Assembly (NCBI GenBank): GCA_032249235.1
Contig: JAVVGF010000001.1
Span: 80,064-144,063, forward strand
From: Thermoproteota archaeon
GTDB taxonomy: Archaea > Thermoproteota > Thermoprotei > Gearchaeales > Gearchaeaceae
Length of the DNA: 64,000 nt
Direction: 5' to 3'
The notes below the pieces were generated by a model. That model did no database searches. It was not told the DNA's origin and saw nothing but the letters and a program-made list of their open reading frames with translations. The position numbers were made by a program, and so were the translations under genes. Positions 20,786 through 64,000 of this stretch are shown piece by piece (position 1 is the first letter of the stretch; every line of letters begins with the position of its first letter).

Positions 20786-21142
20786 GTGTTTATTTGTTTT
20801 ATGGCTTTATCTACTGTGCCTTTGGATAAAGTAAAGAAGGACATCGTAAGTATTTTGAAAAGCTTAGGAATAGATGCAGAAGAAGTTGCTTCTTGCATTG
20901 CAAACATAAAGAAAAGAAAGGGGTATACTACATATATCTATTCACATGAATATGCTTCTTTAGAATCAAGATTAAGGGCGTTTATCGAAGATGTTGAATA
21001 TAAACAATTAAAAAGCAAAGTATATGTTTGGTCTGAATATGAAGGTCAATACAGATATGTTCAAGTTGGATACTTTTTACCGAAAACAGATGAAGGTTTA
21101 ACGCAGCTTGTTGTTCTTACTGTAGGCGTAGCGCAAGCATAA
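20786..21142 (+). CDS. hypothetical protein
   Basis: The 118-aa ORF lies between two minus-strand genes and has no recognisable motif. Confidence 0.3.
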   Translation: MFICFMALSTVPLDKVKKDIVSILKSLGIDAEEVASCIANIKKRKGYTTYIYSHEYASLESRLRAFIEDVEYKQLKSKVYVWSEYEGQYRYVQVGYFLPKTDEGLTQLVVLTVGVAQA

Positions 21143-22328: not shown

Positions 22329-24041
22329 CTAATAGCCAGGTATATCTAATTTTAATAAGCTTTTTTCATAGTAATCCTTTATTTCTTTTGTAAACTCCTT
22401 ATAATCTATGATATTTAGTATAGCAGGTAGTCTTATAGCTTCACCATATACAAGAGCCTCTTTTCTTTTTAAATTTGAAATGACAGGAATGAACAAATTT
22501 TGAAATTTTAATCCGCGTGTGCATGCTTCAATATCTTTTTCACTGGTTAATGTGAAAATGAAATAATTCCAAAGCATTGCTAAAACATCTTCATGAATTT
22601 GCGAAGGTCTTTGATCAATTATGCAAAGAACAATACCTCTTTTCCTTAGTTCTCTTGCAATGTTTCCAAATGCGGTTTTGTAATAAAGTTCGCCAGATAA
22701 AAACTTATGAGCTTCTTCAAGGAAAATAATCAATTTATACTTGAGCTGTTTGCCTTCCATTATATCGCTTATAGCTCTCTGCCATATCTTTTTAGATAAA
22801 AGATGTGCGATCAACGTATAAACTCTTGCATCATCTCCATATCTTCCAAAGCTTATTATAATGCTTCTTTCGCCTTTAAATAGCTCCTCTACGATTTCTT
22901 TCACACAATCTTTCTTATTTGGATTTAAGAATTCATATCTTCTTAATTGATTTAATCTAACTTTTCCTGATCTAAATGACTGTACAGCTCCAGCTCCTAG
23001 CTTTTGTATCTCTTCTTCAATTTTACCTTCTAAATATGCTTTCCTCTTTTCAAAATCTTCTCTATTTTCAAAAAATCCCAACAAATACAATATCCAAGTA
23101 TGATCCTTTTTGTAAATTTCATCTCTCAGAACGCTATCCTTTTCGAATATTTGATTGATTATTCTTCTGTAGCTACCTAAATAATCTATGAATGCATCTG
23201 ACAAATTCAAATTTTCTTTTAAAATTTCTATATCTTCCATTGTGAGCTCTTTAGGGTCAATCGTAAATTCTTCTAAACCAAACTCTCTAGCTAAAATCGA
23301 ATCAGGTGTATATACTTTAAAATCGTTCTTAAAAAGCAATCCAACACCATCTGCATAGTCGTTACCATGCATATCTTTTACTTTTAGCCCATACTCGCTA
23401 TGCATATCGAATATTAAAAGCTTCGTTTTCTTATCTTGATCATGAAATCTATTCGTTAAAATAATCAATGAAGCTAAGATATTGCCTAAATGAGTCTTAC
23501 CTGTCCCAGATTTTCCAAATATACCGAAGGATCCTCTAGTTATTAATTCAACGTTAATGGGTATTTTAACCTTTAAGTCTAATTCTTTTATTGCATGCTT
23601 TGTATATCCTATGCCCCAACTTGTCTTATTATCCATTTTTCCATAGAAATTCTCTATATCTTCCTCTTTCGGTAAATAAATTCTACTTTCATGTACAGGA
23701 ATTGTATCTACTTCTTCAACACTACTTTGGTTTGTTTGAGCTAAAGGTATTATTAAAAATGAAGTTGAAAACTTACCTAAATTACTATAGGTCTTTATAG
23801 TCGTTTCAGCAATTTTTTTGCTTTCTCCTTCTTTAGCTAGTTGTTTAGCTAATTCACTAGCTTTATCTGAACCTGATGAATGGAAGATCTCGGCTACTAA
23901 ACCCAAATATTTTCTCTTTGCACCTTCAACTACTATCAATGAGTTTGTTGCAATATCTTCTGTTAAGTTATAATCCTTTAATTGAGCAGTTAACCCACGT
24001 GTAGAGCTTGCATCAACTATATAAGCGAATTCTTTATCCAT
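22329..24041 (-). CDS. herA: HerA-like hexameric DNA helicase/ATPase
   Basis: An N-terminal HAS-barrel-like region ('YIVDASS...LIVVEGAKRKYLGLVAEI'), a Walker A 'GIFGKSGTGKTHLG', and 'IIFLEEAHKF' plus 'CIIDQRPSQI', the FtsK/HerA-type Walker B and sensor region, are present in 570 aa. Confidence 0.7.
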   Translation of the reverse strand: MDKEFAYIVDASSTRGLTAQLKDYNLTEDIATNSLIVVEGAKRKYLGLVAEIFHSSGSDKASELAKQLAKEGESKKIAETTIKTYSNLGKFSTSFLIIPLAQTNQSSVEEVDTIPVHESRIYLPKEEDIENFYGKMDNKTSWGIGYTKHAIKELDLKVKIPINVELITRGSFGIFGKSGTGKTHLGNILASLIILTNRFHDQDKKTKLLIFDMHSEYGLKVKDMHGNDYADGVGLLFKNDFKVYTPDSILAREFGLEEFTIDPKELTMEDIEILKENLNLSDAFIDYLGSYRRIINQIFEKDSVLRDEIYKKDHTWILYLLGFFENREDFEKRKAYLEGKIEEEIQKLGAGAVQSFRSGKVRLNQLRRYEFLNPNKKDCVKEIVEELFKGERSIIISFGRYGDDARVYTLIAHLLSKKIWQRAISDIMEGKQLKYKLIIFLEEAHKFLSGELYYKTAFGNIARELRKRGIVLCIIDQRPSQIHEDVLAMLWNYFIFTLTSEKDIEACTRGLKFQNLFIPVISNLKRKEALVYGEAIRLPAILNIIDYKEFTKEIKDYYEKSLLKLDIPGY

Positions 24042-24696
24042 GTTTATTTATTTTCAATGCTTTTTCAAATGCTCTATTCACAGAATCTATGAGATCTCCA
24101 AGATAGTTTTCTTCCAAATTATTATGTAGCGTTCTTAAAAGTATGTACATTTCCTCTTCATTAAAATATTTCATAAGATTTCTAAAATAAACTTCGAGAA
24201 AATAATTGAATAAGTTCCTTTCGTCGCTTGGCAAAGTGTTATATATAATCGGTATATAACGAATTCCTTCTTCATTTATCAAATGCATATCCCTTATCAA
24301 TTCCTTATCAGGAATAAAAACGAGATCATGGATAAGTGGGATTTTATTAGGTCTTCCTTGTTTTATTCCATTACTATCTACATATGCTACTATAATAGCT
24401 CCGCATGTTATAGCGAATTTATCAAGAATGTCTTTATAATCCATACCTAATTCTTCTCTCTTTCTTCTTAATGGTTTTAGTCTATCAGTAAGAGGGATTA
24501 AAGGCTCGATTGCTTGAGACGTAACAATTCCGATATGAATTTCATCTCCTGCTAGAGCTGCTACAAATGAAGAATAATCTGGAATGTGATAGAAATCATA
24601 AAGTTGGAATTCAAAATACTTATGTTGTGCTTTTAATATTTCTCCTATTGCTTCCTTTGATTCTTTACTCTTGAATATTTCAACCCAATTTTTCAT
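24034..24696 (-). CDS. hypothetical protein inserted between nurA and herA
   Basis: The 220-aa ORF shows no motif I can assign. It overlaps both neighbours by 4-8 nt, consistent with co-translation. Confidence 0.5.
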   Translation of the reverse strand: MKNWVEIFKSKESKEAIGEILKAQHKYFEFQLYDFYHIPDYSSFVAALAGDEIHIGIVTSQAIEPLIPLTDRLKPLRRKREELGMDYKDILDKFAITCGAIIVAYVDSNGIKQGRPNKIPLIHDLVFIPDKELIRDMHLINEEGIRYIPIIYNTLPSDERNLFNYFLEVYFRNLMKYFNEEEMYILLRTLHNNLEENYLGDLIDSVNRAFEKALKINKHG

Positions 24697-25811
24697 ATTA
24701 TTCTTAACAGTTTTCTTTCAAGCTTTTTGCTCATCTTAACAGGATATATACCAGGAAGTTCCTTATCTAGCATGCTTAAAATGAATCTTTTTTCTCTTTC
24801 AGATAAATAAGCTTGTTCATGTGCTCTTTCCATGCAATATGGATAACCGCCGCCTATTATGCTTTGTAAAAACACGATTTTGCTTATTTCATCTACCATG
24901 TTTTCAAGTTCTTCAGGAATTTCTACACGAAGTACGTTTCCTTCAGATACTTTAATGTAAAACGTATAGATTGTTTTATTAATCAGAGTGCATGGTAAGT
25001 TTTCAATCTTCAAAAGAGGGCTTCTTTGACCCACTTTAAGGATCTTATCGAAAAGTTGTTTATCGCTGATCTTTATTTCCTCTAGCTTGGTATCTTTATT
25101 AAGGAAATTTATAAAAGGTCTAGCCATACTATAAAAGACTGCAATAGGATAAGTTCCTTTTTTAATCATCAAGTTTATGTTTTCAAATAATTTCTCCATT
25201 ATTTTTTCAATAACATTTTCTTTCATGCTAGCAAGAAAACTGGAAGATAAACTTTCATCTAAGAAAACGTAGGAGCCTTTTATATCTATCCTTTTGCTAA
25301 TTTCTTCAATTATATTTGCATATTCCTCCAATCTTAAATATTGTAGAATCCAAGAAGAAATCCTGCTTTCCTCGATTATTTCCTCAACTTTTTTCTTTGT
25401 ATAAAACTTTGGAATGCTCTCTTCTAGGTATTGATTTTTTTCATAATCGTAGAAGAAATAGCCAATATTTATTAAGATGAAATAAGGCGTGATATGATGA
25501 GAAGTCATTTCGCTAGTATCTAATGCAAGTACTTTTTTATTCCTTATTCTATCGAAAGCCCATCTATTTTCGCTCAGATTTTGATTTATGTTAGTTATAT
25601 CAATGCAATTCTTGAATTTGATCCCCTCAACTGGATAAGCAAACTCCTTTCTTTTATCCTTGATAAGCCAACTCTCTAATGCTTCATCCTTAAATTCAAA
25701 ATAAGCTTTTTTAAGTCTATCAAGAACATTTTTCTCAAGTTCCATATCTTCAATTAAATCTGAGCTTACTTTCTTAATCACTTTTATAATTAAAGCTTGA
25801 TTCAGCATCAA
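24693..25811 (-). CDS. nurA: NurA-like 5'-3' nuclease
   Basis: The 372-aa protein has 'VLALDTSE' and 'VFLDESLSS', which resemble NurA motifs I and III (DGS / DGSL) with substitutions. It is in an operon with herA. Confidence 0.5.
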   Translation of the reverse strand: MMLNQALIIKVIKKVSSDLIEDMELEKNVLDRLKKAYFEFKDEALESWLIKDKRKEFAYPVEGIKFKNCIDITNINQNLSENRWAFDRIRNKKVLALDTSEMTSHHITPYFILINIGYFFYDYEKNQYLEESIPKFYTKKKVEEIIEESRISSWILQYLRLEEYANIIEEISKRIDIKGSYVFLDESLSSSFLASMKENVIEKIMEKLFENINLMIKKGTYPIAVFYSMARPFINFLNKDTKLEEIKISDKQLFDKILKVGQRSPLLKIENLPCTLINKTIYTFYIKVSEGNVLRVEIPEELENMVDEISKIVFLQSIIGGGYPYCMERAHEQAYLSEREKRFILSMLDKELPGIYPVKMSKKLERKLLRII

Positions 25812-25838
25812 TCTAAAATGAACAAATCAATATTTATG

Positions 25839-26368
25839 TTAGCTTTTTTTCAAAACTTTAATTAGCTCATTATATAGCTCATTAAAAATTCTGTTCCAGT
25901 TTTCTCTTGTTAAAAAGATCAATTTCTTTTCTCCTATAACCATGTTCGCGTAGTTCAAATATTTTCTATGCAATGTTGCAAGCAAATGTTTTTCAGACCT
26001 TAATATTTTTTCAATAGTTATTTTAAAATTAATGCTCATGAATTCCATTGCACCAATTTCATCACAAACAATTAAATCGCTTTCATTTAATGCTCTCTCT
26101 AAAGCTTTTACACCTATTTCTTCTAAATCTTTTAGGTTTATTATATAAGCGCCAAACTTAGGTCCTTGGAATATTTGTTCTTTTGATGCCAAAATTCCCT
26201 TTTCATTATATTTCAAATCTAGAATGCTAAAGCCTATTCTTGTATTATTTTTTCTTATTTCCTGCGTTACGAATCCATCATATTTTATTCCTTCAGTCTT
26301 TAGTTTCTCTATCAAGTTAAGTATTAATGTAGTTTTACCTGATCCAGGCTCGCCTGTTATTAACCATT

Positions 26369-26378
<10 letters not shown>
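25839..26378 (-). CDS. nucleoside-triphosphatase THEP1 family
   Basis: The 179-aa protein has 'WLITGEPGSGKTTLI' (P-loop), 'DGFVTQEIR' and 'LIVCDEIGAME'. Confidence 0.7.
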
Positions 26379-27511
<1,133 letters not shown>

Positions 27512-27518
27512 CTAATTG

Positions 27519-28325
27519 CTAATTCTCATTTAATATAATATCTTTTATTTTTTTAGCCAACTCTTCGTTATTCGTAACAAGAACAGCAACTCTCTTATTT
27601 TCTAGAATACTTACTTTATTTAAATCATCATTTAAGATTTCAACATATCCTCCTGCATTTTTAACCATGAACATTCCTCCTACTATATCAAGTAATCTTA
27701 CTCTAGGTGTAGGAACAATGAATGCATCTAACTTTCCTGATGCAACGTATGCTAAATCTAATGCTATTGCTCCGAAAAACCTAATATATCTAATAGCTTC
27801 GAGTATTTTATTCAAAGTCTTACCATATATAATGGTTTCTTTCGTCAGCTTAACATCAATGCTCGCAATTACTTCATTTAGATCAACTGTCTTAGAAGTC
27901 TTAACCTCTTTACCGTTTAGATAAGTTTTATTACCGTCTGAAATGAACATATCTCCACGAATTAAGTCAATAGTTCCCGATATTATAATATCTTGAAATC
28001 TTTCTCCTTTTGCTAATACTAATGTAGTTGCACAAAATGGTAAGTCTCTAAAGGTATTGGTGCTTCCATCTACAGGATCAACGATTGCAATTCCTTCCCC
28101 ATAACCTTCAATTATTCCTTTTTCTTCTGACAAAATTTTACCTACTTTATCTTTTAATTCGTTGATAATGACCTCTTCAACATATTCATCAAAATAAAGC
28201 GTTATGTCACCTCCATATCCTTTTTTAATCTTTTCTTTGAACTTTTGAGACTGTTTTACTTCATGGAACGCATTATATGCTTTATTCAATATATTTTCAG
28301 CCAGCTCAATGTAATTCATATGCAA
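27519..28325 (-). CDS. suhB: inositol monophosphatase / fructose-1,6-bisphosphatase family protein
   Basis: 'IVDPVDGSTNTF' and 'LDLAYVASGKLDAF...KNAGG' are IMPase-family motifs. Confidence 0.75.
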   Translation of the reverse strand: MHMNYIELAENILNKAYNAFHEVKQSQKFKEKIKKGYGGDITLYFDEYVEEVIINELKDKVGKILSEEKGIIEGYGEGIAIVDPVDGSTNTFRDLPFCATTLVLAKGERFQDIIISGTIDLIRGDMFISDGNKTYLNGKEVKTSKTVDLNEVIASIDVKLTKETIIYGKTLNKILEAIRYIRFFGAIALDLAYVASGKLDAFIVPTPRVRLLDIVGGMFMVKNAGGYVEILNDDLNKVSILENKRVAVLVTNNEELAKKIKDIILNEN

Positions 28326-53368: not shown

Positions 53369-54553
53369 ATGAATTTCGAAGAATATTTCAGAGGCTCAAC
53401 TTTATTCATAGATGAAAGTAAGTTATTCCCTGAATATGTTCCTCCTTATTTACCTTTTAGAGAAGAACAAATAAAAAAATTAGCAATATTTTTTAGAGGG
53501 ATTCTAGAATTAGATAATTTTTCTTTTTATAGAGCGATTTGTCATGGACCAGCTGGTACCGGTAAAACTGCTGTGGCTAAGTTTTTCGGAAAGTTAATCA
53601 GCGATGAAGCTAAAAAAAGAGGTCTTCAGCTTTATTTTATTCATATTAATTGCCATTTAGAAAGAACCTACTTCATGGTCGTTAGCAAAATAGCAGAACA
53701 TTTGATTCCCGGAATACCTAAAAGAGGTTTTTCTCCTAAGCAATATTTAACTTGGATTTTGGATTATTTAGAAGAAGAAAACGCAAAGCTTTTATTGTGT
53801 CTAGATGAGGCTGATTACATAATTAGGAATGATCCTGAGCTTCTCTATGATTTGACTCGAATACCTGAATTAGGCATTAATAAAATTAGGATGAATTTGC
53901 TTTTGATATTAAGAAATATTTCAAACTTATATTCACTAGATGAAAGTATTCTAAGTACTTTACAGAGAAACATCAATCCATTCAATCCGTATAGTTATTT
54001 TGAAATCAAAGAAATAATTAAAGAAAGAGCTCAAGAAGCTTTCGTTGCTAATGCAGTAGATAATAGTGTAATAGAAACGATTGCGATGAAATCTGGAATA
54101 GATAAAGGTGGTAGAGGCGATGCAAGATTTGCTTTAGAATTATTGTGGAGAGCTGGTAAAATAGCCGAAATTGAAAATTCTAATAAAGTAAAGATTGAAC
54201 ATTTAAGAAAGGCAATGAGCGAAATATATCCTGGTCTATCCATAGAAGTGTTTGAAACCTTGCTTGATGAAGAAAAGTTGATTTTGTTATCGATTTGTAG
54301 GGCTTTAAGAGAAGAAAATAATTCTCATGTTAGCATAAAAAGAGTAAGAGAACATTATGAATTAATATGTGAAAAACTAAAGCGAACTCCTAGGAAATAT
54401 ACACAGTTCTGGAGTTATATACAAAGCTTGAAGAACAAGAATTTGATAAACGTATCAGTAGTAAATGAAAAAAGAGGTAGGAGAAGTTATATTTCAATAG
54501 ATGTTCCTTTAGATACACTAGAAAATAAACTACTAGAATATGTCAAAACATAG
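53369..54553 (+). CDS. orc1: Orc1/Cdc6 replication initiator
   Basis: 'YVPPYLPFREEQIKKL' is the Orc1 N-terminal motif, 'CHGPAGTGKTAVAK' is Walker A and 'LLCLDEADY' is Walker B. A C-terminal winged helix completes the 394-aa protein. Confidence 0.9.
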   Translation: MNFEEYFRGSTLFIDESKLFPEYVPPYLPFREEQIKKLAIFFRGILELDNFSFYRAICHGPAGTGKTAVAKFFGKLISDEAKKRGLQLYFIHINCHLERTYFMVVSKIAEHLIPGIPKRGFSPKQYLTWILDYLEEENAKLLLCLDEADYIIRNDPELLYDLTRIPELGINKIRMNLLLILRNISNLYSLDESILSTLQRNINPFNPYSYFEIKEIIKERAQEAFVANAVDNSVIETIAMKSGIDKGGRGDARFALELLWRAGKIAEIENSNKVKIEHLRKAMSEIYPGLSIEVFETLLDEEKLILLSICRALREENNSHVSIKRVREHYELICEKLKRTPRKYTQFWSYIQSLKNKNLINVSVVNEKRGRRSYISIDVPLDTLENKLLEYVKT

Positions 54554-54854: not shown

Positions 54855-55823
54855 ATGAGTGAAGAATTACTTTGGATAGAAAAATATCGTCCTAAAAGAT
54901 TAGATGACATAGTAAACCAGGAAGACGTAGTAAGAAGTTTGAAAAAATTGATAGAAGAAAAAAACATGCCCCATTTATTGTTTACAGGTCCGCCTGGCGT
55001 AGGTAAGACTGCTACAGCTTTAGCATTTGTTCGAGATTTATATGGTGAGGAATGGAGAAATAATGTACTTGAGCTCAATGCAAGCGACGAAAGAGGAATA
55101 GATACCATAAGAGAGAAGATTAGGGAAAGATTTGCAAAAACGTTGCCTTTGGGCGATATTCCTTTCAAAATAGTTATTTTAGATGAAAGCGATGCCATGA
55201 CCAGCGAGGCTCAAACAGCATTGAGAAGGATAATGGAAATATATGCAAAGAATATTCGTTTCATTTTAACATGCAATTATGGCAATAGAATTATAGAACC
55301 TATTCAATCTAGAACTGTTGTATTGAGATTTTCTCCTCTTGAAAAAGAACATGTAATAAAAAGGCTTCTATTTATTGCTCAAAATGAGAAAGTAAAAGTA
55401 AGTAACGAAGCATTAGAAGTGATTTATGATTTAAGCGGAGGAGATTTAAGAAGAGCAATCAATTTACTTCAGAGCTCTTCGCTTTTTGGCGAGGTAACAC
55501 CTGAAATAGTATATAAAGTAGCAGGTGCAGTTAAACCTAGAGAAGTAAGAGCAATATTCGATAATCTTCTGAAAGGAGATTTCGAAAGTGCTAGGAATGC
55601 TATTCTTAAAATGTTATTCAACGACGGAATCTCAGGCTCCGAGATAATATATCATTTATATCGTGAAACATATAGATTAAACGTACCTGATGAATGCAAA
55701 CTACAATTGATCGAAATTCTTGGAGATTATGAATATCGAATTCTCGAAGGTTCCAGCGAAGAAATACAATTAAATTCAATGCTTGCACGAATGCAATTAA
55801 TATTGAGAAATTATACTAGATGA
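54855..55823 (+). CDS. rfcS: replication factor C small subunit
   Basis: 'WIEKYRPKRLDDIV', 'FTGPPGVGKTATA', 'ILDESDAMT' and the 'SRC'-equivalent 'QSRTVVLRF' are present. The gene has no intein. Confidence 0.9.
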   Translation: MSEELLWIEKYRPKRLDDIVNQEDVVRSLKKLIEEKNMPHLLFTGPPGVGKTATALAFVRDLYGEEWRNNVLELNASDERGIDTIREKIRERFAKTLPLGDIPFKIVILDESDAMTSEAQTALRRIMEIYAKNIRFILTCNYGNRIIEPIQSRTVVLRFSPLEKEHVIKRLLFIAQNEKVKVSNEALEVIYDLSGGDLRRAINLLQSSSLFGEVTPEIVYKVAGAVKPREVRAIFDNLLKGDFESARNAILKMLFNDGISGSEIIYHLYRETYRLNVPDECKLQLIEILGDYEYRILEGSSEEIQLNSMLARMQLILRNYTR

Positions 55824-57079
55824 GCATTAGGAGGGAAGAAATCTGGACTATTAAGCATAAACCAAAAAGAATTGAGGATATCGTAGGTAATGAAGAAGCA
55901 AAAAAAGCATTTCTAGATTGGTTAAATATATGGCTCAAGGGTAAAGTTCCAGTAAAGAAAGCTATATTGTTGTACGGTCCTCCTGGTATAGGTAAGACAT
56001 TATTGGCAGAAACAGCAGCCTTGCAATTCAATTTAGAATTGATTGAAATAAATGCTGGCGACATTTATAGCGTAGAATTCGTCAAGAAAACTGCTTTGGC
56101 AACGAGCAAAGAGACAAGCTTTGTTAATAAAACTAAATTAATATTAGTCGATGAGCTAGATAGCATTGAAGGACCTAAAGCGAATTATGTTTTATCTGTG
56201 CTCGTTGATTTGATTAAAGAATCGAGATATCCTGTTGTTCTAATTGCAAACGACGGATGGAAGCCAAACTTATTCCAAATTAGAAATTTGTGCTTGATGA
56301 TTGAGATGAAAAGACTTTCTACAAGATTGATTGTGAATTATTTAGCAAACATATGCAAGAAAGAAAACTTGAAGTATGAAGAAGAAGCATTGAAAATCAT
56401 TGCAGAAAGATCTGAAGGAGACATGAGAAGTGCAATATTAGATTTGCAGTTTTGTTCTATTTTTGGAAGAATAGGTGTAAGAGAAGTCAATTTGTTATCT
56501 CCTAAAGATAGACAAAGCGATGTTTTTAATTCTATAAGGAAATTAATTTATGCAACTAATTTATTCTCTGCAAAAAGCGTATTAGATGAATTTCCTTATG
56601 ATCAAGATACGCTATTACTATGGATCGAGGAGAATTTGTTTAGATTTTATACAAATCCTAAAGATTTAGCTTTGGCTTATGATAAGTTGTCAAAGGCAGA
56701 TATATACAGAGCTAGGGCTAATAAAGAGCGATATTGGCGCTTCTTGCTATACTTTTCAGATTTGATTACAGCAGGAGTTGCATTATCGAAATCACAAAAG
56801 CCTACCTATGCAAAAATGCAATTTCCTCAGACGCTTAAAGTATTATCTAGCCAAAAAAGAATTAGGGAGCTAAGAGATGCGCTTTTAGAAAAAATTTCTA
56901 AGAAAAATCATCTTTCGAAATCTAAAGCCTTGAATGAGATCTTTTGGTATTTACCTGTAATGTTTAAAAATGAAAAGTTTGCAAACGATTTCATCAAAAA
57001 ATATGAGGTAAACGATGAACTAGCTGATTATTTGAAAAATCTATCTTCAAATATTGACTTGAAATTAAAAACTAAATAG
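55820..57079 (+). CDS. rfcL: replication factor C large subunit
   Basis: 'WTIKHKPKRIEDIV', 'LYGPPGIGKTLLA' and 'LVDELDSI' are present. The stop overlaps rfcS by 4 nt. Confidence 0.85.
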   Translation: MSIRREEIWTIKHKPKRIEDIVGNEEAKKAFLDWLNIWLKGKVPVKKAILLYGPPGIGKTLLAETAALQFNLELIEINAGDIYSVEFVKKTALATSKETSFVNKTKLILVDELDSIEGPKANYVLSVLVDLIKESRYPVVLIANDGWKPNLFQIRNLCLMIEMKRLSTRLIVNYLANICKKENLKYEEEALKIIAERSEGDMRSAILDLQFCSIFGRIGVREVNLLSPKDRQSDVFNSIRKLIYATNLFSAKSVLDEFPYDQDTLLLWIEENLFRFYTNPKDLALAYDKLSKADIYRARANKERYWRFLLYFSDLITAGVALSKSQKPTYAKMQFPQTLKVLSSQKRIRELRDALLEKISKKNHLSKSKALNEIFWYLPVMFKNEKFANDFIKKYEVNDELADYLKNLSSNIDLKLKTK

Positions 57080-58121: not shown

Positions 58122-58661
58122 ATGGAGGAGTTATTGATTGAGAATTATTTCAGTTATGAAACATCAAAAGTTAAAGTTAAGGTTCTGAAGGATCATGCTC
58201 AGGTAACTTTCTTAGGTAATGTATATGGACCTTTTATCAAAGATAAGGAAATAGAATTACCTAGAGCCTTAGCTAGGATTTTAGCAAGTGAAGGGATAAC
58301 AGAATATCCCCATCCTCAAATTACTTTCGATGATATAAGGAAAAGGCATCATCAGGAAAGACAAGCTAAGAATGAATTGAAAAAATTAGAAGAAGATTTT
58401 TATTTACAGGCTAAAGATCTAATATTTCTTGCTGAGAAAAAAATAATAAATGAGAATCCTAAAGAAATAAAACAGCTTATAAATGAAATATGTCTTGTGA
58501 GATTAGAGAAAATGATGAGGGGGATCTTATATGTTGAAGATTTCAATAAGATATCACAGCTTCTAACTTATGAAGAGCGATATCTCTTTTCATCATTAAG
58601 AGAAATAATTAGAACATGGTTAGATGACGTATTGAATAATGCTATCTTGAGAAAAGTATAA
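58122..58661 (+). CDS. GINS complex subunit (Gins23/Gins51 family), immediately upstream of mcm
   Basis: The 179-aa helical protein is called from its position directly abutting mcm, as in the gins-mcm operon described for Sulfolobales. The sequence evidence itself is weak. Confidence 0.5.
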   Translation: MEELLIENYFSYETSKVKVKVLKDHAQVTFLGNVYGPFIKDKEIELPRALARILASEGITEYPHPQITFDDIRKRHHQERQAKNELKKLEEDFYLQAKDLIFLAEKKIINENPKEIKQLINEICLVRLEKMMRGILYVEDFNKISQLLTYEERYLFSSLREIIRTWLDDVLNNAILRKV

Positions 58662-60700
58662 TGGGACAGGAAATAAAGGATTACAAGCAACTTTATAAAA
58701 AATTTTTTAAAGAATATACTGAAGAGGATAAGCCTGTTTATTTATCGAAGATAGGAGAAATGATTTTCTTGAACAATAGATCACTAACAATTTCTCATAA
58801 ACATTTATTTTTCTTCGATAAAGAATTAGGCGACTTACTTCTTAGGAATCCTGAAGAACAATTATATTTTGCTGAAGAGGCTTTGAAAGAGATTATAATT
58901 GAAAAAGATGAGGAGTTTCTAGAAAAAGCTAAAAAGATTTTCGTAAGGGTTAAGGACATTTATCTTGATGAATACAGGCTAAAAATAAGGAACATTCGTG
59001 CAAATTACATAGGTTCTTTAATAGAAATTAGAGGAGTAGTAACGAAGAGCAGTGCAATCAGGCATAAACTCATAAGCGGAAAGTTCTTGTGCGATAGTTG
59101 TGGTAGTATATTTAGTGCAGATTTGGCTTCAATTAAGAAGATAGATGCAATTCGTTGCATTAATTGTGGTTCAAAAGTATCAAAGATATTAGAAAAGAAC
59201 TTCATAGATGTTCAAAGAATAATAGTTCAAGAACCTTTAGAAGAAGTTCCTGCAGGCCAAATACCTAGAACAATAGAAGTATATCTTGAAGGGGATATTG
59301 TAGATTTAGCATATCCTGGAAATCATGTTACCATCACAGGTATATTAAAAGAAAAAAGAGTTTCTTCACAAGATGAGCTTACTTTCTCATCTTATATTCA
59401 CGCAGTAAACTTGGAAGTCAAGGAAAAAGGTTTTGAAGAAGAAGAAGTGACACAGGAAGATTTAGAAGCGATAGAAAAATTAAAATCAAATTACAGAAAC
59501 ATAGGTGATGCAATAGTTGATTCTATTGCTCCTTCAATACATGGCTTAAGGCATATAAAGAAAGCTTTAGCCCTTCAGCTATTTGGTGGTGTGCCAAAAT
59601 TAATGCCAGATGGTGTTAGGATAAGAGGAGATATCCATATTTGTCTAGTAGGTGATCCAGGTACTGCGAAAACACAACTTCTTCGCTATATGGTTCAATT
59701 AGCACCAAAAGGCATCTATACTACAGGCAAAGGAGTTTCGGCAGCAGGTTTAACAGCTGCTGTAGTAAGAGATAAATCTTCTGGAGAATTCTATTTAGAA
59801 GCTGGTGCATTAGTTTTAGCTGATCAAGGATTGGCTGCAATAGATGAAGTCGATAAAATGAGGAATGAAGATAGAGTAGCTATGCATGAAGCGATGGAAC
59901 AGCAAACAGTGAGCATTGCAAAAGCGGGAATTGTAGCAACACTTAATGCTCGTTGTGCTATACTTGCAGCAGCGAATCCTTCACTAGGTAGATTTGAGAG
60001 GAATAAAACAATAGCAGAAAACATAGATTTACCCATTACTCTTCTTTCAAGATTCGATTTAATATTTCCCATCATAGATATTCCAAGCAAAGAAAGCGAT
60101 GCTAAACTTGCATTACATATCTTAGCTATTCATTCAAATAGCGAAGAACCATTCAAGAATATTATCCCGCCTGAACTTCTCAGAAAATATGTAATATATG
60201 CGAGGAAGACGATTCATCCTAAATTATCTCAAGATGCTCAAAAAGAAATTTATGATTTTTATTTGAAAATGAGAGAAATCTCAACAGAAGGACCTGTTGC
60301 AATAACACCTAGACAGCTGGAAGCATTAATAAGATTAACAGAAGCCCATGCTAGAATGAATTTGAGGAATGAGGCTACAAATGAAGATGCTAGAGAAGCC
60401 ATAAATCTTATGAAATACATGATGGATACCACAATGATAGATTATGCAACTAGAAAAGTTGATGTAGATATTTTAATGTCAGGATTACCTAAATCACAAA
60501 GAGATAAATTTGTAAAAATTAGGGATATATTGACTGAATTAAATTACGAAAGAGAAGCAGTTGATCTACAAGAAGTGTTGCAAAGAGCTGAAAAGGAAGG
60601 GATACCTAGCGAGGAAGCTAGGAAAATAATTGAAAAGATGAAAAACGAAGGTGATATTTTTGAGCCTAAAAAAGGTTTCATTAAGAAAACTCCTTCTTGA
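58661..60700 (+). CDS. mcm: MCM replicative helicase
   Basis: A zinc finger 'CDSCGS...CINCGS', Walker A 'LVGDPGTAKTQLL', Walker B 'IDEVDKM' and the arginine finger 'SRFDLIF' are present, with a C-terminal winged helix in 679 aa. Confidence 0.95.
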   Translation: MGQEIKDYKQLYKKFFKEYTEEDKPVYLSKIGEMIFLNNRSLTISHKHLFFFDKELGDLLLRNPEEQLYFAEEALKEIIIEKDEEFLEKAKKIFVRVKDIYLDEYRLKIRNIRANYIGSLIEIRGVVTKSSAIRHKLISGKFLCDSCGSIFSADLASIKKIDAIRCINCGSKVSKILEKNFIDVQRIIVQEPLEEVPAGQIPRTIEVYLEGDIVDLAYPGNHVTITGILKEKRVSSQDELTFSSYIHAVNLEVKEKGFEEEEVTQEDLEAIEKLKSNYRNIGDAIVDSIAPSIHGLRHIKKALALQLFGGVPKLMPDGVRIRGDIHICLVGDPGTAKTQLLRYMVQLAPKGIYTTGKGVSAAGLTAAVVRDKSSGEFYLEAGALVLADQGLAAIDEVDKMRNEDRVAMHEAMEQQTVSIAKAGIVATLNARCAILAAANPSLGRFERNKTIAENIDLPITLLSRFDLIFPIIDIPSKESDAKLALHILAIHSNSEEPFKNIIPPELLRKYVIYARKTIHPKLSQDAQKEIYDFYLKMREISTEGPVAITPRQLEALIRLTEAHARMNLRNEATNEDAREAINLMKYMMDTTMIDYATRKVDVDILMSGLPKSQRDKFVKIRDILTELNYEREAVDLQEVLQRAEKEGIPSEEARKIIEKMKNEGDIFEPKKGFIKKTPS

Positions 60701-62829
60701 AATTGGATATTTCAGAATTAGAAAAATTTGGAATTCCTTCAGAACATATAAATAAGTTAAAAGAAAACGGCTATGTTAGTTTATATCCTCCTCAAATTTT
60801 AGCAATAGAAAAAGGAGTTTTAGATTTTAGGAATGTATTGTTAGCAACTCCTACAGCTTCAGGAAAGACATTCGTTGCGATATTAGCGAGCATTAAGCAT
60901 TTAATAAATGGAGGAAAAGTTTTATATTTATGTCCTTTAAGGGCCCTTGCTTCAGAGAAATATGAAGAATTCAAAAATTTACTTGAATTCAAGACTGCAT
61001 TATCGATAGGAGACTATGACAGTGAAGATCCATGGTTGAAGAATTACGATGTAATCATAAGCACATATGAAAAGGCAGATAGTTTATTGCGACACAAAGC
61101 TCCATGGATAAGCGATGTATCACTAGTAGTTATAGACGAAATACATATGCTTGATAGCGATCGAGGGCCTACACTTGAATTTCTAATAGCTAGATTAAAG
61201 AAGCAAGTTAAAGATGCACAGTTCATTGCATTAAGCGCAACTGCGGTAAATGCTAAAGAGTTGGCTGAATGGTTATCTGCAGAAGCAATTATAAGTAGTT
61301 GGAGACCGGTTCCTTTGAAAGAAGGAGTTTATAGAAATGGTGTAATATATTATAAAGATAATTCTACTAAGAAAATACCTATTCGAAGTGGTATTGCTTT
61401 CATTGACTTAGCGCTTGATATCTTAGATGAGGGAGGACAGGCTTTGATATTCAATTCAACAAGAGCAAATGCTATGAAGAATTCTGAGAGATTAAAAGAT
61501 TTTGTTAAAAAATATCTGACCAAAGATGAATTGAAAGAGCTCAAAGCTCTTGCGGAAAAAATTGAAGAGAATGATTGGCTATCTTCAACACTTAAAGATC
61601 AAATAATCAACGGGGTTGCATTCCATCATGCAGGATTATCTTATAATGCGAGAAGAATTGTTGAAGAAGGTTTTAGAAGTTCTCTTATAAAGGTAGTCTC
61701 ATCTACCACAACATTAGGAGCAGGCATAAACGTTCCAGCTCGTAGGGTTATAATAAATGAAATATCAAGATATTCTGCAGGTCTTGGTTATTCAGAGATA
61801 ATGACTGTTAATGAATATAAACAGCTTGCAGGAAGGGCAGGAAGGCCTAGATATGATATTTATGGCGAAGCGATCATTGTAGCAAAGGGGAAATATGATG
61901 TTGATATATTACTTGAAAATTACATCAAAGGTGAAGGAGAGCCTATTTCTTCGCAAATAAAAGATGAAAAGAGTCTGCGTTCCCATATTTTATCGTTGAT
62001 AGCAAATGAAATAGTTACAAATGAAGAAGAATTGAAGAATATTTTGCGTGAAACTTTTGCTTCAAAGCAAGTTGGCATTCTATTTCTAGAAAGAATTGCA
62101 AATAAAGTAATCAATTATTTACAGCGTGCATCTTTCATAGTTGTTAAAAATCATTACGTTGCTACTCCTTTGGGGAAAAGAGTTTCTGAATTATACATAG
62201 ATCCTTTAACTGCTGAGCAAATAGTTAAAGGATTGAAGAATTTATCTTTTGAATATGTTAATGATGATTTCTATTATCTTTTATTGATATCTTCAACAGA
62301 AGACATGCAAAGATTATCAGTTTTTAAAAGCGAAATAGATATCTTGAGAGATGAATTGGAAATAATTAACAGGAAATATCCTTTCAAATTCGATATATAT
62401 GAAGATGAATCACTTTCAATAATTAAAACAGCGAAGATGTTAAAGAGTTGGATAGACGAAGAAAGAGAAGATGAGATTGCAGATAAATATAGTATTGGTT
62501 TAGGTGATTTGTACAATCTTATTCAAATTGCTAGTTGGATTTGTCATGCTGCAAAGGAAATCTCAAAATTGCTCGGTCATCAAGAAGCTTATAATAAATT
62601 GAGCAAGCTAGAAGAGAGAATTGAAAATGGTGTAAGAGAAGAACTTTTAGAATTAGTTAGAATACCTAAGATTGGAAGAATAAGAGCTAGAATTTTATAC
62701 AATGCAGGCTTCAGAGATATAGAAAAGCTAAGCAAAGCTAAAGAAGAAGAAATAATTTCTTTGCCGATGATAGGGATCGAGACATACAAGAGCATAAAAG
62801 AATTCCTTACAAAAATGAAAACCTTTTAA
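60697..62829 (+). CDS. hel308: Hel308/Hjm Ski2-like DNA helicase
   Basis: 'ATPTASGKTF' is motif I, 'DEIHML' motif II, 'SAT' motif III and 'HHAGL' motif IV. The 710-aa protein has a C-terminal HhH region, and its start overlaps the mcm stop. Confidence 0.9.
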   Translation: MKLDISELEKFGIPSEHINKLKENGYVSLYPPQILAIEKGVLDFRNVLLATPTASGKTFVAILASIKHLINGGKVLYLCPLRALASEKYEEFKNLLEFKTALSIGDYDSEDPWLKNYDVIISTYEKADSLLRHKAPWISDVSLVVIDEIHMLDSDRGPTLEFLIARLKKQVKDAQFIALSATAVNAKELAEWLSAEAIISSWRPVPLKEGVYRNGVIYYKDNSTKKIPIRSGIAFIDLALDILDEGGQALIFNSTRANAMKNSERLKDFVKKYLTKDELKELKALAEKIEENDWLSSTLKDQIINGVAFHHAGLSYNARRIVEEGFRSSLIKVVSSTTTLGAGINVPARRVIINEISRYSAGLGYSEIMTVNEYKQLAGRAGRPRYDIYGEAIIVAKGKYDVDILLENYIKGEGEPISSQIKDEKSLRSHILSLIANEIVTNEEELKNILRETFASKQVGILFLERIANKVINYLQRASFIVVKNHYVATPLGKRVSELYIDPLTAEQIVKGLKNLSFEYVNDDFYYLLLISSTEDMQRLSVFKSEIDILRDELEIINRKYPFKFDIYEDESLSIIKTAKMLKSWIDEEREDEIADKYSIGLGDLYNLIQIASWICHAAKEISKLLGHQEAYNKLSKLEERIENGVREELLELVRIPKIGRIRARILYNAGFRDIEKLSKAKEEEIISLPMIGIETYKSIKEFLTKMKTF

Positions 62830-62851
62830 ATCTTCTCATAATTCTTCATTG

Positions 62852-64000
62852 ATGTTGAGGATAATCCATACTGCAGATCTTCATTTGGGCATAAGCTTTT
62901 CAAACATTTCAAATTCTCCTTCATTTGAGAATATTAGATTTCAAGATTTCTTCAAAAATTTTGAATACATAAAGGATTATGCCATAAAAAACAAAGCAGA
63001 CTTATTCATAATTGCAGGAGATATTTTCCATAATCCAAGACCTTCAATAGAAGCTTTCAATGCTTTCTCGAAGATAATCGGAGATTTGATTAAAAATGGA
63101 ATTCAAGTAGTTGTAACGCTAGGAAATCATGACAGTAGCAAAACTAGAGAGGCTTTGAGCTATTTAAAAAGTTATGTTAATGTTGGCCTAGAGCGTTTTA
63201 TTCTCTTCGATGTTGCAAGCAAGAAGATTATAGCTCTGCATAATGGTGAGAAAGTTAAAATAATTGGATTGCCGTATCCTCATTTCCAATCTGCTTATTC
63301 ATATCAAGAATTCGTTAGCTTCTTTGAAAATAAACTCCAAGAATTGAAAAGCAACGATACCGCAGACTATATGATAGTAGTAGGTCATATATTTGTAGAA
63401 GGAGGCAAGATTGGTTCTGAACAAAGGATTGCTTCATTAAGAGATCATCCTATACCTAAGAGATTATTTAAGGATGTTGATGTTGCATGTTTAGGTCATC
63501 TTCATACACCTCAAGAATTAGATAGTAATATTCTATATTCAGGTTCGATTGAAAGAATAGATTTCGGAGAAGAAAATGAAGAAAAAAGTTTCTTAGACAT
63601 AATTTTAGGAAGCAAATTGGAATTTAAGCGAATTCCTTTGAAGCTAAGACCTATGAAGACTTTCTATCTTAATTTTGAAAATGCATCTATTAATGAAATA
63701 AGCGATAAAATTAAAGCACTCAAATTAGAAGAGGATTCAATAGTAAGATTAAGAATAGAAGTATCTAAGACCACAAATATTTCAGCCTCTTATATTGATA
63801 AAATTATAAGAGAGAATTTCAAGCTTGCAGGTTATAAAATTGAAATAACAAGAAAGAAAGTTGAAGAAACGAGGCTTGCAGCAAAAGCATCAAGTTTCAA
63901 TGAATATCTTGAAAATTATTTGAGAATTAAATACAAGAAATCGGATGAATGGATAAGAAATGTAATCGAAGAAGCTAATAGAATTATTGAAGAAGTAAGG
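62852..64000 (+). CDS. mre11: Mre11 DNA double-strand-break repair nuclease (3' end beyond window)
   Basis: It is not in the ORF track because it runs off the window end. Manual translation gives MLRIIHTADLHLG...IIAGDIFHNPRPS...TLGNHD...GHIF, the phosphoesterase motifs I-IV. Confidence 0.85.
   Translation, partial: MLRIIHTADLHLGISFSNISNSPSFENIRFQDFFKNFEYIKDYAIKNKADLFIIAGDIFHNPRPSIEAFNAFSKIIGDLIKNGIQVVVTLGNHDSSKTREALSYLKSYVNVGLERFILFDVASKKIIALHNGEKVKIIGLPYPHFQSAYSYQEFVSFFENKLQELKSNDTADYMIVVGHIFVEGGKIGSEQRIASLRDHPIPKRLFKDVDVACLGHLHTPQELDSNILYSGSIERIDFGEENEEKSFLDIILGSKLEFKRIPLKLRPMKTFYLNFENASINEISDKIKALKLEEDSIVRLRIEVSKTTNISASYIDKIIRENFKLAGYKIEITRKKVEETRLAAKASSFNEYLENYLRIKYKKSDEWIRNVIEEANRIIEEVR

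Follow-up and report, generated by a model that had tools for sequence, protein, structure and literature searches.

We found a conserved third gene between the genes for NurA, a nuclease, and HerA, an ATPase, in a Thermoproteota archaeon. The DNA we analyzed, hereafter the window, is a stretch of 64,000 nucleotides (nt) on the forward strand of contig JAVVGF010000001.1 (positions 80,064 to 144,063; assembly GCA_032249235.1). The intervening gene encodes a protein of 220 amino acids (aa), and we refer to both the gene and its product as X. In archaea, HerA-NurA together with Mre11-Rad50 corresponds to the long-range end resection of eukaryotes, and, on the strength of the Sulfolobus, Pyrococcus, Thermococcus and Deinococcus systems, it has been viewed as a helicase-nuclease machine of two proteins. 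Judging from sequence comparisons and from analogy with these systems, we lean towards the view that nurA-X-herA is a module for the end resection of DNA double-strand breaks, i.e., a variant of HerA-NurA that is widespread in TACK (Thaumarchaeota, Aigarchaeota, Crenarchaeota and Korarchaeota) and Asgard archaea and that has a third conserved component. This three-gene form of the archaeal end-resection module appears to be new, being previously undescribed in the literature that we searched.

The three genes lie on the minus strand. The first, nurA (24693..25811), encodes a divergent NurA-family nuclease of 372 aa with a predicted RNase H fold. It is followed by X (24034..24696) and then by herA (22329..24041), which encodes a HerA-clade hexameric translocase ATPase of 570 aa with an N-terminal HAS barrel of its own. 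The stop codon of nurA and the start codon of X share the sequence ATGA, a 4-nt overlap, and the stop of X and the start of herA share ATGGATAA, an overlap of 8 nt. These coordinates and overlaps are exactly those given in an earlier sequence-only reading of the window. That reading also called the middle protein obligatorily co-translated; the overlaps do suggest translational coupling, but "obligatorily" is an overstatement. The mechanically called reading frame of nurA begins with a TTG at 25811; since its orthologues open with "MLN/MLD", the ATG at 25808 is the more probable start. Full-length homologues of all three genes, with 26-66% identity, occur in the same order in independent assemblies.

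We compared the gene neighborhoods around X in 25 archaeal loci that span this region (L001-L025). X is followed by herA in all of them, and nurA is upstream in every locus that has sequence there (L013 begins at X), so the arrangement seen in the window recurs in related genomes. The lineages with the trio are Thermoproteota, Culexarchaeia, Nitrososphaerota, Bathyarchaeia, Baldrarchaeia and Njordarchaeales. Spacing is tight in most gene-called loci: neighboring genes overlap by 1-16 nt or are at most 37 nt apart.

In lineages outside the window's clade, the commonest arrangement is nurA-X-herA-mre11-rad50. The mre11-rad50 pair is immediately 3′ of herA in L007/L022, L008/L009/L021, L016-L020, L024 and L025; the carriers are three Culexmicrobium species, two Baldrarchaeota, two Nitrososphaerota metagenome-assembled genomes (MAGs), one Thermoproteota MAG, one Bathyarchaeota contig and one JGI contig. 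The pair lies 3.3 kb downstream of the trio in L012 and is not adjacent to it on the Njordarchaeales contig. A Rad50 with a zinc hook is among the trio-linked pairs. The proposal that nurA and herA are detached from mre11-rad50 is therefore right for the window, but does not hold as a general trait of the trio.

The product of nurA matches the Pfam NurA family (PF09376) with an E-value of 2.3e-14 and 54 bits, against a curated cutoff of 21, over model positions 2-252 of 254. Its translation contains the motifs "LALDTSEM" (with D98) and "FLDESLSS" (with D185/E186), so the NurA-like nuclease with "LDTSE" and "LDESL" that had been proposed is borne out. Among 10 orthologues, the invariant residues include D98, S100, H106, D185, E186, Y227 and H331. 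A direct phmmer search of this protein against the PDB gave no match to any solved NurA. The catalytic acidic residues of the Sulfolobus solfataricus NurA are D58, E116 and D133; going by motif order, D98 and D185 would correspond to D58 and D133, and no counterpart was assigned to E116. A profile of the NurA family matches the S. solfataricus protein (2ygk) with an E-value of 0.03, and the match is limited to the C-terminal "GYP..AH" segment. In this weak match, "GYPY..RAHE" is aligned with "GYPFPLLKAH" of S. solfataricus. The S. solfataricus residues I295, Y298, F300 and H306 align with "QSIIGGGYPYCMxRAHE", the block in which the X-linked NurA family is most conserved. According to a study of the S. 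solfataricus complex (PMC3326311), this segment holds the active-site residue Y298 and the HerA-binding patch I295/F300, and NurA is an RNase H-fold enzyme.

HerA of the window matches the Pfam DUF87/HerA central domain with 69.6 bits, against a cutoff of 23.2. Both flanking genes thus score above the curated Pfam thresholds of the families to which they had been assigned. The Walker A motif "GKSGTGKT" is at 176-183 and "IIDQRPS" at 474-480. Across 29 HerA orthologues, the Walker A motif, the Walker B residues E442/E443, R463/R466 and "DQRPS" are invariant. The AlphaFold 2 (AF2) model is confident, with a predicted local distance difference test score (pLDDT) of 90.2, and combines a barrel at the N-terminus with a RecA-like core and a helical bundle. 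Its barrel has seven strands (6-12, 16-21, 35-39, 44-56, 92-103, 108-110 and 120-122) with helices inserted at 58-87. In a Foldseek search, the top 50 matches of this model were all HerA-clade chains, with E-values down to 5e-26 and 13-18% identity; they include TdpA, the HerA proteins of Thermococcus kodakarensis and S. solfataricus, Sir2-HerA and DUF4297-HerA. The Pfam score, the model and the Foldseek matches together agree with the earlier description of a HerA-type ATPase with a HAS-barrel N-terminus.

By contrast, the curated NCBIfam equivalogs for HerA, whether for repair or for anti-phage proteins (NF040937 HerA_Thermprot, NF040819 helicase_HerA and NF042943/4 anti-phage HerA), give only partial, C-terminal matches of 50-67 bits, against cutoffs of 800-970. 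Judged by these profiles, the window's HerA is outside the curated repair and defense groups and represents a separate subfamily. More generally, the conserved motifs suggest that NurA and HerA of the trio both look active, and the sequence comparisons place them as a distinct subfamily that is very divergent from characterized members.

X has no meaningful match in Pfam (E≤1), NCBIfam, PADLOC, PHROGs or, by phmmer, among PDB sequences. A word-indexed search of 5.8 billion proteins found 8 relatives with 45-94% identity, and an exhaustive HMMER profile search brought up 55 among 1.84 billion cluster representatives. All of these 55 are 127-230 aa long, each with one matched stretch; therefore, X is a stand-alone protein and not a domain of a larger one. 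Their source names are all "hypothetical protein", from MAGs. X had been described as a protein with no recognizable domain, which is correct for sequence libraries but not for comparisons of folds or of profiles, which reveal a HAS barrel.

The AF2 model of X (pLDDT 80.5, predicted template-modeling score 0.76) has a β-barrel at 18-127 into which helices are inserted; residues 131-219 then form a helical bundle. We place the barrel at about 13-130 and the conserved insertion at 66-93. Structure prediction, which had been suggested for this protein, thus yielded a barrel fold that matches HerA-clade chains. The fold comparison scores highest for S. solfataricus HerA (4d2i_B, 12.3) and HerA-DUF4297 (9c1m_M, 12.1), followed by Sir2-HerA (8j4u_M, 10.0), a HerA central-domain protein (8wiv_A, 9.8), Deinococcus HerA (7f6d_B, 9.2), TdpA (8wet_A, 9.1) and T. 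kodakarensis HerA (9x1l_A, 9.0). Chains of V/F-type, G1-ATPase and FliI ATPases, which carry an N-terminal barrel, score 8.4-8.6.

Profile comparisons point the same way. We used two alignments of X, a broad one in which the archaeal family is mixed with a bacterial family discussed below, and an archaeal-only one with 31 sequences. With hhalign, positions 13-148 of X align with positions 1-147 of the HerA family at an E-value of 1.1e-7 for the broad alignment and 2.7e-5 for the archaeal-only alignment. The probability falls from 94 to 74% between the two, but the alignment itself is unchanged. The Pfam HAS-barrel model (PF09378) matches 6 of the 31 archaeal members weakly (best E-value 1.5e-4) and the X of the window not at all (E≤1). 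In the AF2 models, the elements of X and of the HerA barrel follow one another in the same way: first four strands, then the inserted helices, another three strands and finally a helix. On the evidence of these models and profiles, X is an ATPase-less paralog of the N-terminal HAS barrel of this HerA subfamily, with the same helical insertion and an added helical bundle. HerA retains its own HAS barrel alongside X.

One residue of X, H123, is invariant across the 31 archaeal sequences, and G18, E19, Y33, P120 and L125 are conserved in at least 90% of them. The insertion has the conserved motif "P.PL..REEL..YPD". E19, "P..P.IHDL" with H123, and the insertion make up a family signature that is most likely an interface. 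We found no catalytic motif of a known enzyme in X, and the family is mildly acidic, with a median isoelectric point of 5.7. Given this conservation across archaeal phyla and the confident predicted fold, X is not the unconserved noise that a short reading frame might have been.

We considered whether X and herA could be one gene. A herA gene split by a sequencing frameshift is ruled out, given that the X/herA junction varies among assemblies (overlaps of 8, 4 or 1 nt and gaps of 2-23 nt) and the reading frames are always separate. Moreover, no fusion of about 790 aa was among the matches.

X also has relatives in bacteria. The search with the broad alignment found hundreds of proteins, each about 200 aa long, and the Pfam HAS-barrel model matches some of them weakly. 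Few of these have organism names, and those that do are mostly from MAGs of Candidatus Dependentiae/Babeliales. Examples of this Dependentiae-type family are P0310 and P0308, and its loci include L026:5821-6417, L027:6001-6615 and L029-L108. The archaeal X and Dependentiae families align with hhalign at an E-value of 4e-28 over about 170 columns, i.e., over nearly their full length. They have in common a Glu and "P.IH" (E...P.IH), an insertion with "P.P..K/R-T-EEL..P.I", their length and their stand-alone architecture. However, the Dependentiae family is bacterial and lies between rnhB and ftsY. Its gene block consists of S6-S18, a lexA-like gene, rnhB, the X-like gene and ftsY. In 41 of the 52 metagenomic loci with enough upstream sequence, the X-like gene directly follows rnhB, which encodes RNase HII, on the same strand; of the other 11, the 6 that we inspected have rnhB no more than about 1 kb upstream. 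The 4-6 kb flanks of these loci contain neither HerA nor NurA. Separately, nine further relatives (P0144, P0154, P0157, P0160, P0164, P0169, P0173, P0175 and P0176) are stand-alone proteins of 177-208 aa, one of them on a 4.9-Mb contig, and conform to neither the "IHDL" type of archaea nor the "W.W" type of Dependentiae.

The role of X can be considered in light of characterized HerA-NurA complexes. The S. solfataricus study states that removing the HAS domain from HerA abolishes NurA binding and that the complex is HerA6:NurA2 (PMC3326311). In a cryo-electron microscopy study of the Deinococcus complex, NurA contacts the HAS barrels at the interface (PMC9960219). Since the ring of HAS barrels of HerA is the docking surface for NurA in characterized systems, we propose that X would also act by barrel-mediated contacts. 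Because X is a copy of this docking module and its gene lies between those of the two partners, we consider a third subunit to be the most likely role. By this analogy X probably, though far from certainly, serves the NurA-HerA machine as a structural or adaptor subunit, and it would be present in stoichiometric amounts. It could sit between the NurA dimer and the HerA hexamer as an extra collar of barrels, or it could be a platform bound to NurA; both geometries are conjecture. In either position, X might couple the nuclease to the translocase, and perhaps also to Mre11-Rad50.

Some observations weigh against such a subunit. HerA keeps its own HAS barrel, and the need for a second one is not obvious. 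The homologous Dependentiae family follows rnhB with neither HerA nor NurA within 4-6 kb, and therefore the fold of X can work outside a HerA-NurA operon. In addition, all members of the X family come from uncultured MAGs.

Given that X copies the HerA barrel, as the structural and profile evidence indicates, it could also be a decoy or regulator that mimics the NurA-docking surface of HerA. It would then bind NurA or cap HerA and keep the nuclease inactive until a break is sensed, i.e., it would be a negative regulator or chaperone and not a working part of the resecting complex. The presence of a barrel in HerA fits this idea, in that a second barrel is not structurally required. The literature also states that isolated NurA has nuclease activity and that HerA modulates this activity (cited in PMC9905601; PMC3326311). 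However, X lies between nurA and herA with overlaps or tiny gaps in nearly all gene-called loci, a pattern more typical of stoichiometric subunits. The X-specific insertion and the E19/H123 signature are absent from the HerA barrel, so X is not a simple mimic, and inhibition is not favored over activation. We regard a decoy or negative regulator as unlikely, but as the main alternative to a third subunit.

The bacterial relatives raise a further alternative, in which X belongs to a broader family of stand-alone HAS barrels that partner RNase H-fold nucleases without a HerA motor. In archaea the nuclease would be NurA, in Dependentiae it would be RNase HII, and X might, for example, form a ring or platform that positions it. 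This idea draws on the nearly full-length homology of the two families, with their common signature and insertion, and on gene order: the X-like gene comes next after rnhB in 41 of the 52 loci, and archaeal X is always directly after nurA. NurA is itself an RNase H-fold enzyme, as stated in PMC3326311. On the other hand, the Dependentiae loci are 58-79% identical to one another with a frozen housekeeping synteny, and the adjacency to rnhB may have no functional meaning. Archaeal X is, moreover, linked to herA as invariably as to nurA. A partnership with nucleases alone is thus doubtful. At least as speculative is the extension by analogy that X-family HAS barrels make up an ancient, hitherto unrecognized class of cofactors that serve RNase H-fold nucleases as rings or platforms, with the archaeal machine built as a three-layer NurA2-X(n)-HerA6 assembly.

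The sequence-only reading left room for a role in phage defense. HerA defense systems (Sir2-HerA/Nezha, DUF4297-HerA, TdpAB and MADS mad8) have the HerA fold in common with the trio and pair an effector nuclease with HerA via the HAS-barrel face, as the trio would. The best structural match of the window's HerA is TdpA of the TdpAB defense system (Foldseek E-value 5e-26), and it scores equally against anti-phage models (PADLOC and NCBIfam, up to 90 bits) and repair HerA models. This likeness to defense HerA proteins is, however, no greater than the likeness to repair HerA proteins, and the matches to defense models are partial and far under the curated cutoffs. Neither NurA nor X has a PADLOC (E≤1) or PHROGs match, and the phage and plasmid collections contain nothing that matches X. 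The partner of HerA in the trio is NurA together with a HAS-barrel protein, unlike the Sir2, DUF4297 or TdpB of the defense systems.

The genomic context also differs from that of a defense system, in that the trio lies in housekeeping synteny and linked to mre11-rad50, and not in a variable island. Where the contig extends far enough, an IMPase (inositol monophosphatase)-family gene, trpS and a gene for a THEP1-type NTPase are 5′ of the trio in the window's clade (L001-L004, L010, L011 and L014) and in a hot-spring clade (L005, L006 and L012). They are directly upstream of nurA even where the X proteins are only 38-49% identical, and these housekeeping flanks are stable down to about 40% protein identity. 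The inference of a core function from the housekeeping neighbors, which had been drawn from the window, is thereby supported. The same three genes are not upstream of nurA in Culexarchaeia, Baldrarchaeia, Bathyarchaeia or Njordarchaeales, and they are syntenic context outside the nurA-X-herA module. No integrase, transposase or other defense gene is annotated in the gene-called flanks. The GC content of about 0.30-0.31 at the trio matches that of the remainder of the window; this evenness and the conserved synteny rule out a foreign island.

A stronger argument for repair than the housekeeping neighbors is the linkage of the trio to cellular mre11-rad50, including a Rad50 with a zinc hook, across many phyla. 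Because of this linkage, repair is supported and defense is unlikely. We therefore favor a repair role over defense, and a HerA-based anti-phage or anti-plasmid module in the manner of Sir2-HerA, DUF4297-HerA or TdpAB seems very improbable. It is scarcely credible that X, although a truncated paralog of the neighboring herA, is a functionless, decaying remnant of a duplicated herA 5′ end, an idea effectively refuted by conservation: at least 31 archaeal sequences, which diverge to as little as 15-25% identity, have an unbroken reading frame of full length; one His never varies, several other positions reach 90% conservation or more, and the predicted fold is confident; X is also coupled to both neighbors in a conserved way and has a homologous bacterial family.

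In the window, mre11 is about 37 kb from nurA and directly after hel308. This placement beside hel308 had been proposed before and was confirmed by translating the frame and by L028, a contig from the same organism. The mre11 gene (62850..64000, plus strand; start at about 62850) is represented by its N-terminal 383 codons and runs off the end of the window; its N-terminus reads MLRIIHTADLHLG..GDIFH..GNHD, and the translated frame shows the phosphoesterase motifs. L028 carries, in order, genes for Hel308, Mre11 (386 aa) and Rad50 (809 aa), and no second herA or nurA is present beside the detached mre11-rad50 on this contig. The window's Mre11 matches the in-operon Mre11 of Culexmicrobium in a tblastn search with 33% identity and an E-value of 1e-57, and by this comparison the two are orthologous.

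The replication and repair cluster that hel308 belongs to contains, in the window, cdc6/orc1 (53369-54553), the small and large subunits of RFC (54855-55823 and 55820-57079), GINS (58122-58661), MCM (58661-60700) and Hel308 (60697-62829). The order on L028 is cdc6, RFC-small, RFC-large, an oppositely oriented AIR synthase-related gene, GINS, MCM, Hel308, Mre11 and Rad50. MCM and Hel308 overlap by 4 nt, and GINS and MCM by 1 nt. A replication origin may be located near cdc6. The detachment of mre11-rad50 is specific to the window's clade. The arrangement is most simply read as the separation of a five-gene cluster, with mre11-rad50 now beside MCM and Hel308, although we infer the direction of this change. 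If nurA-X-herA is a resection module, in this clade it would merely have been separated from mre11-rad50, which would have moved beside hel308 and MCM.

We now note further features around the trio. The genes upstream of nurA, on the same strand as previously described, are those for the THEP1-type NTPase (25839-26378, minus strand; Pfam NTPase_1, E-value 1.5e-49), trpS (26369-27511, minus strand) and the IMPase-family protein (27519-28325, minus strand); trpS and the THEP1 gene overlap by 10 nt. The 27-nt gap between the THEP1 gene and nurA contains an A/T-rich TATA-like box, ATAAATAT (25830..25837, minus strand), about 26 nt 5′ of the nurA ATG. Comparable A/T-rich boxes occur 20-35 nt 5′ of nurA in several orthologous loci, and the box may be a candidate archaeal promoter for a leaderless nurA-X-herA transcript. 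Downstream of the trio is a gene for a major facilitator superfamily (MFS) transporter. A reading frame of 118 aa (20786-21142, plus strand) without a Pfam match overlaps the 3′ end of this MFS gene convergently. Genes of 109-113 aa are called at its position, in the same relative orientation, in L001-L004, and it is probably a conserved small gene. In Baldrarchaeia, two adjoining short reading frames with SIR2 domains (53 aa and 195-215 aa) are located just 3′ of rad50 (L008:11619-12412, and L009). These may be a single sirtuin gene that is frameshifted or split.

Compared with canonical HerA-NurA of S. solfataricus, Pyrococcus furiosus and T. kodakarensis, the trio has the same NurA-domain nuclease and the same HerA translocase with an N-terminal HAS barrel. 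It also resembles the canonical system in its conserved ATPase motifs and putative nuclease acidic residues and, in most related lineages, in its linkage to mre11-rad50. However, the canonical cluster lacks the third conserved gene between nurA and herA, and its order is herA-mre11-rad50-nurA, as opposed to nurA-X-herA(-mre11-rad50). The HerA and NurA sequences of the trio are very divergent from canonical ones, and in the window mre11-rad50 is 37 kb away, by hel308. The Deinococcus radiodurans NurA-HerA complex (PDB 7f6d) has two components in a 6:2 ratio and, unlike the trio, no separate barrel protein.

To our knowledge, the HAS barrel (PF09378; HerA and F1/V1/FliI-type ATPases) is fused to an ATPase domain in all characterized cases. 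X differs from these barrels in being free-standing and in having its own helical bundle, a conserved insertion and the E/H signature. In our literature search, whose coverage did not extend to two foundational comparative papers, neither a gene separating nurA from herA nor a HAS-barrel partner that stands alone was described.

Stand-alone HAS barrels may have a wider role, as the homologous family in Dependentiae hints. The role of X is directly testable because the protein is small, its predicted fold is confident and its signature is clear (E19, H123 and the insertion at 66-93). A conserved extra component in a resection operon of TACK and Asgard archaea would surprise specialists. In Bathyarchaeia, Nitrososphaerota, Culexarchaeia, Baldrarchaeia and Njordarchaeales, the third protein of the operon copies the very domain that docks NurA. 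If X is indeed a subunit, the architecture and regulation of end resection in these archaea would differ from those of the model systems.

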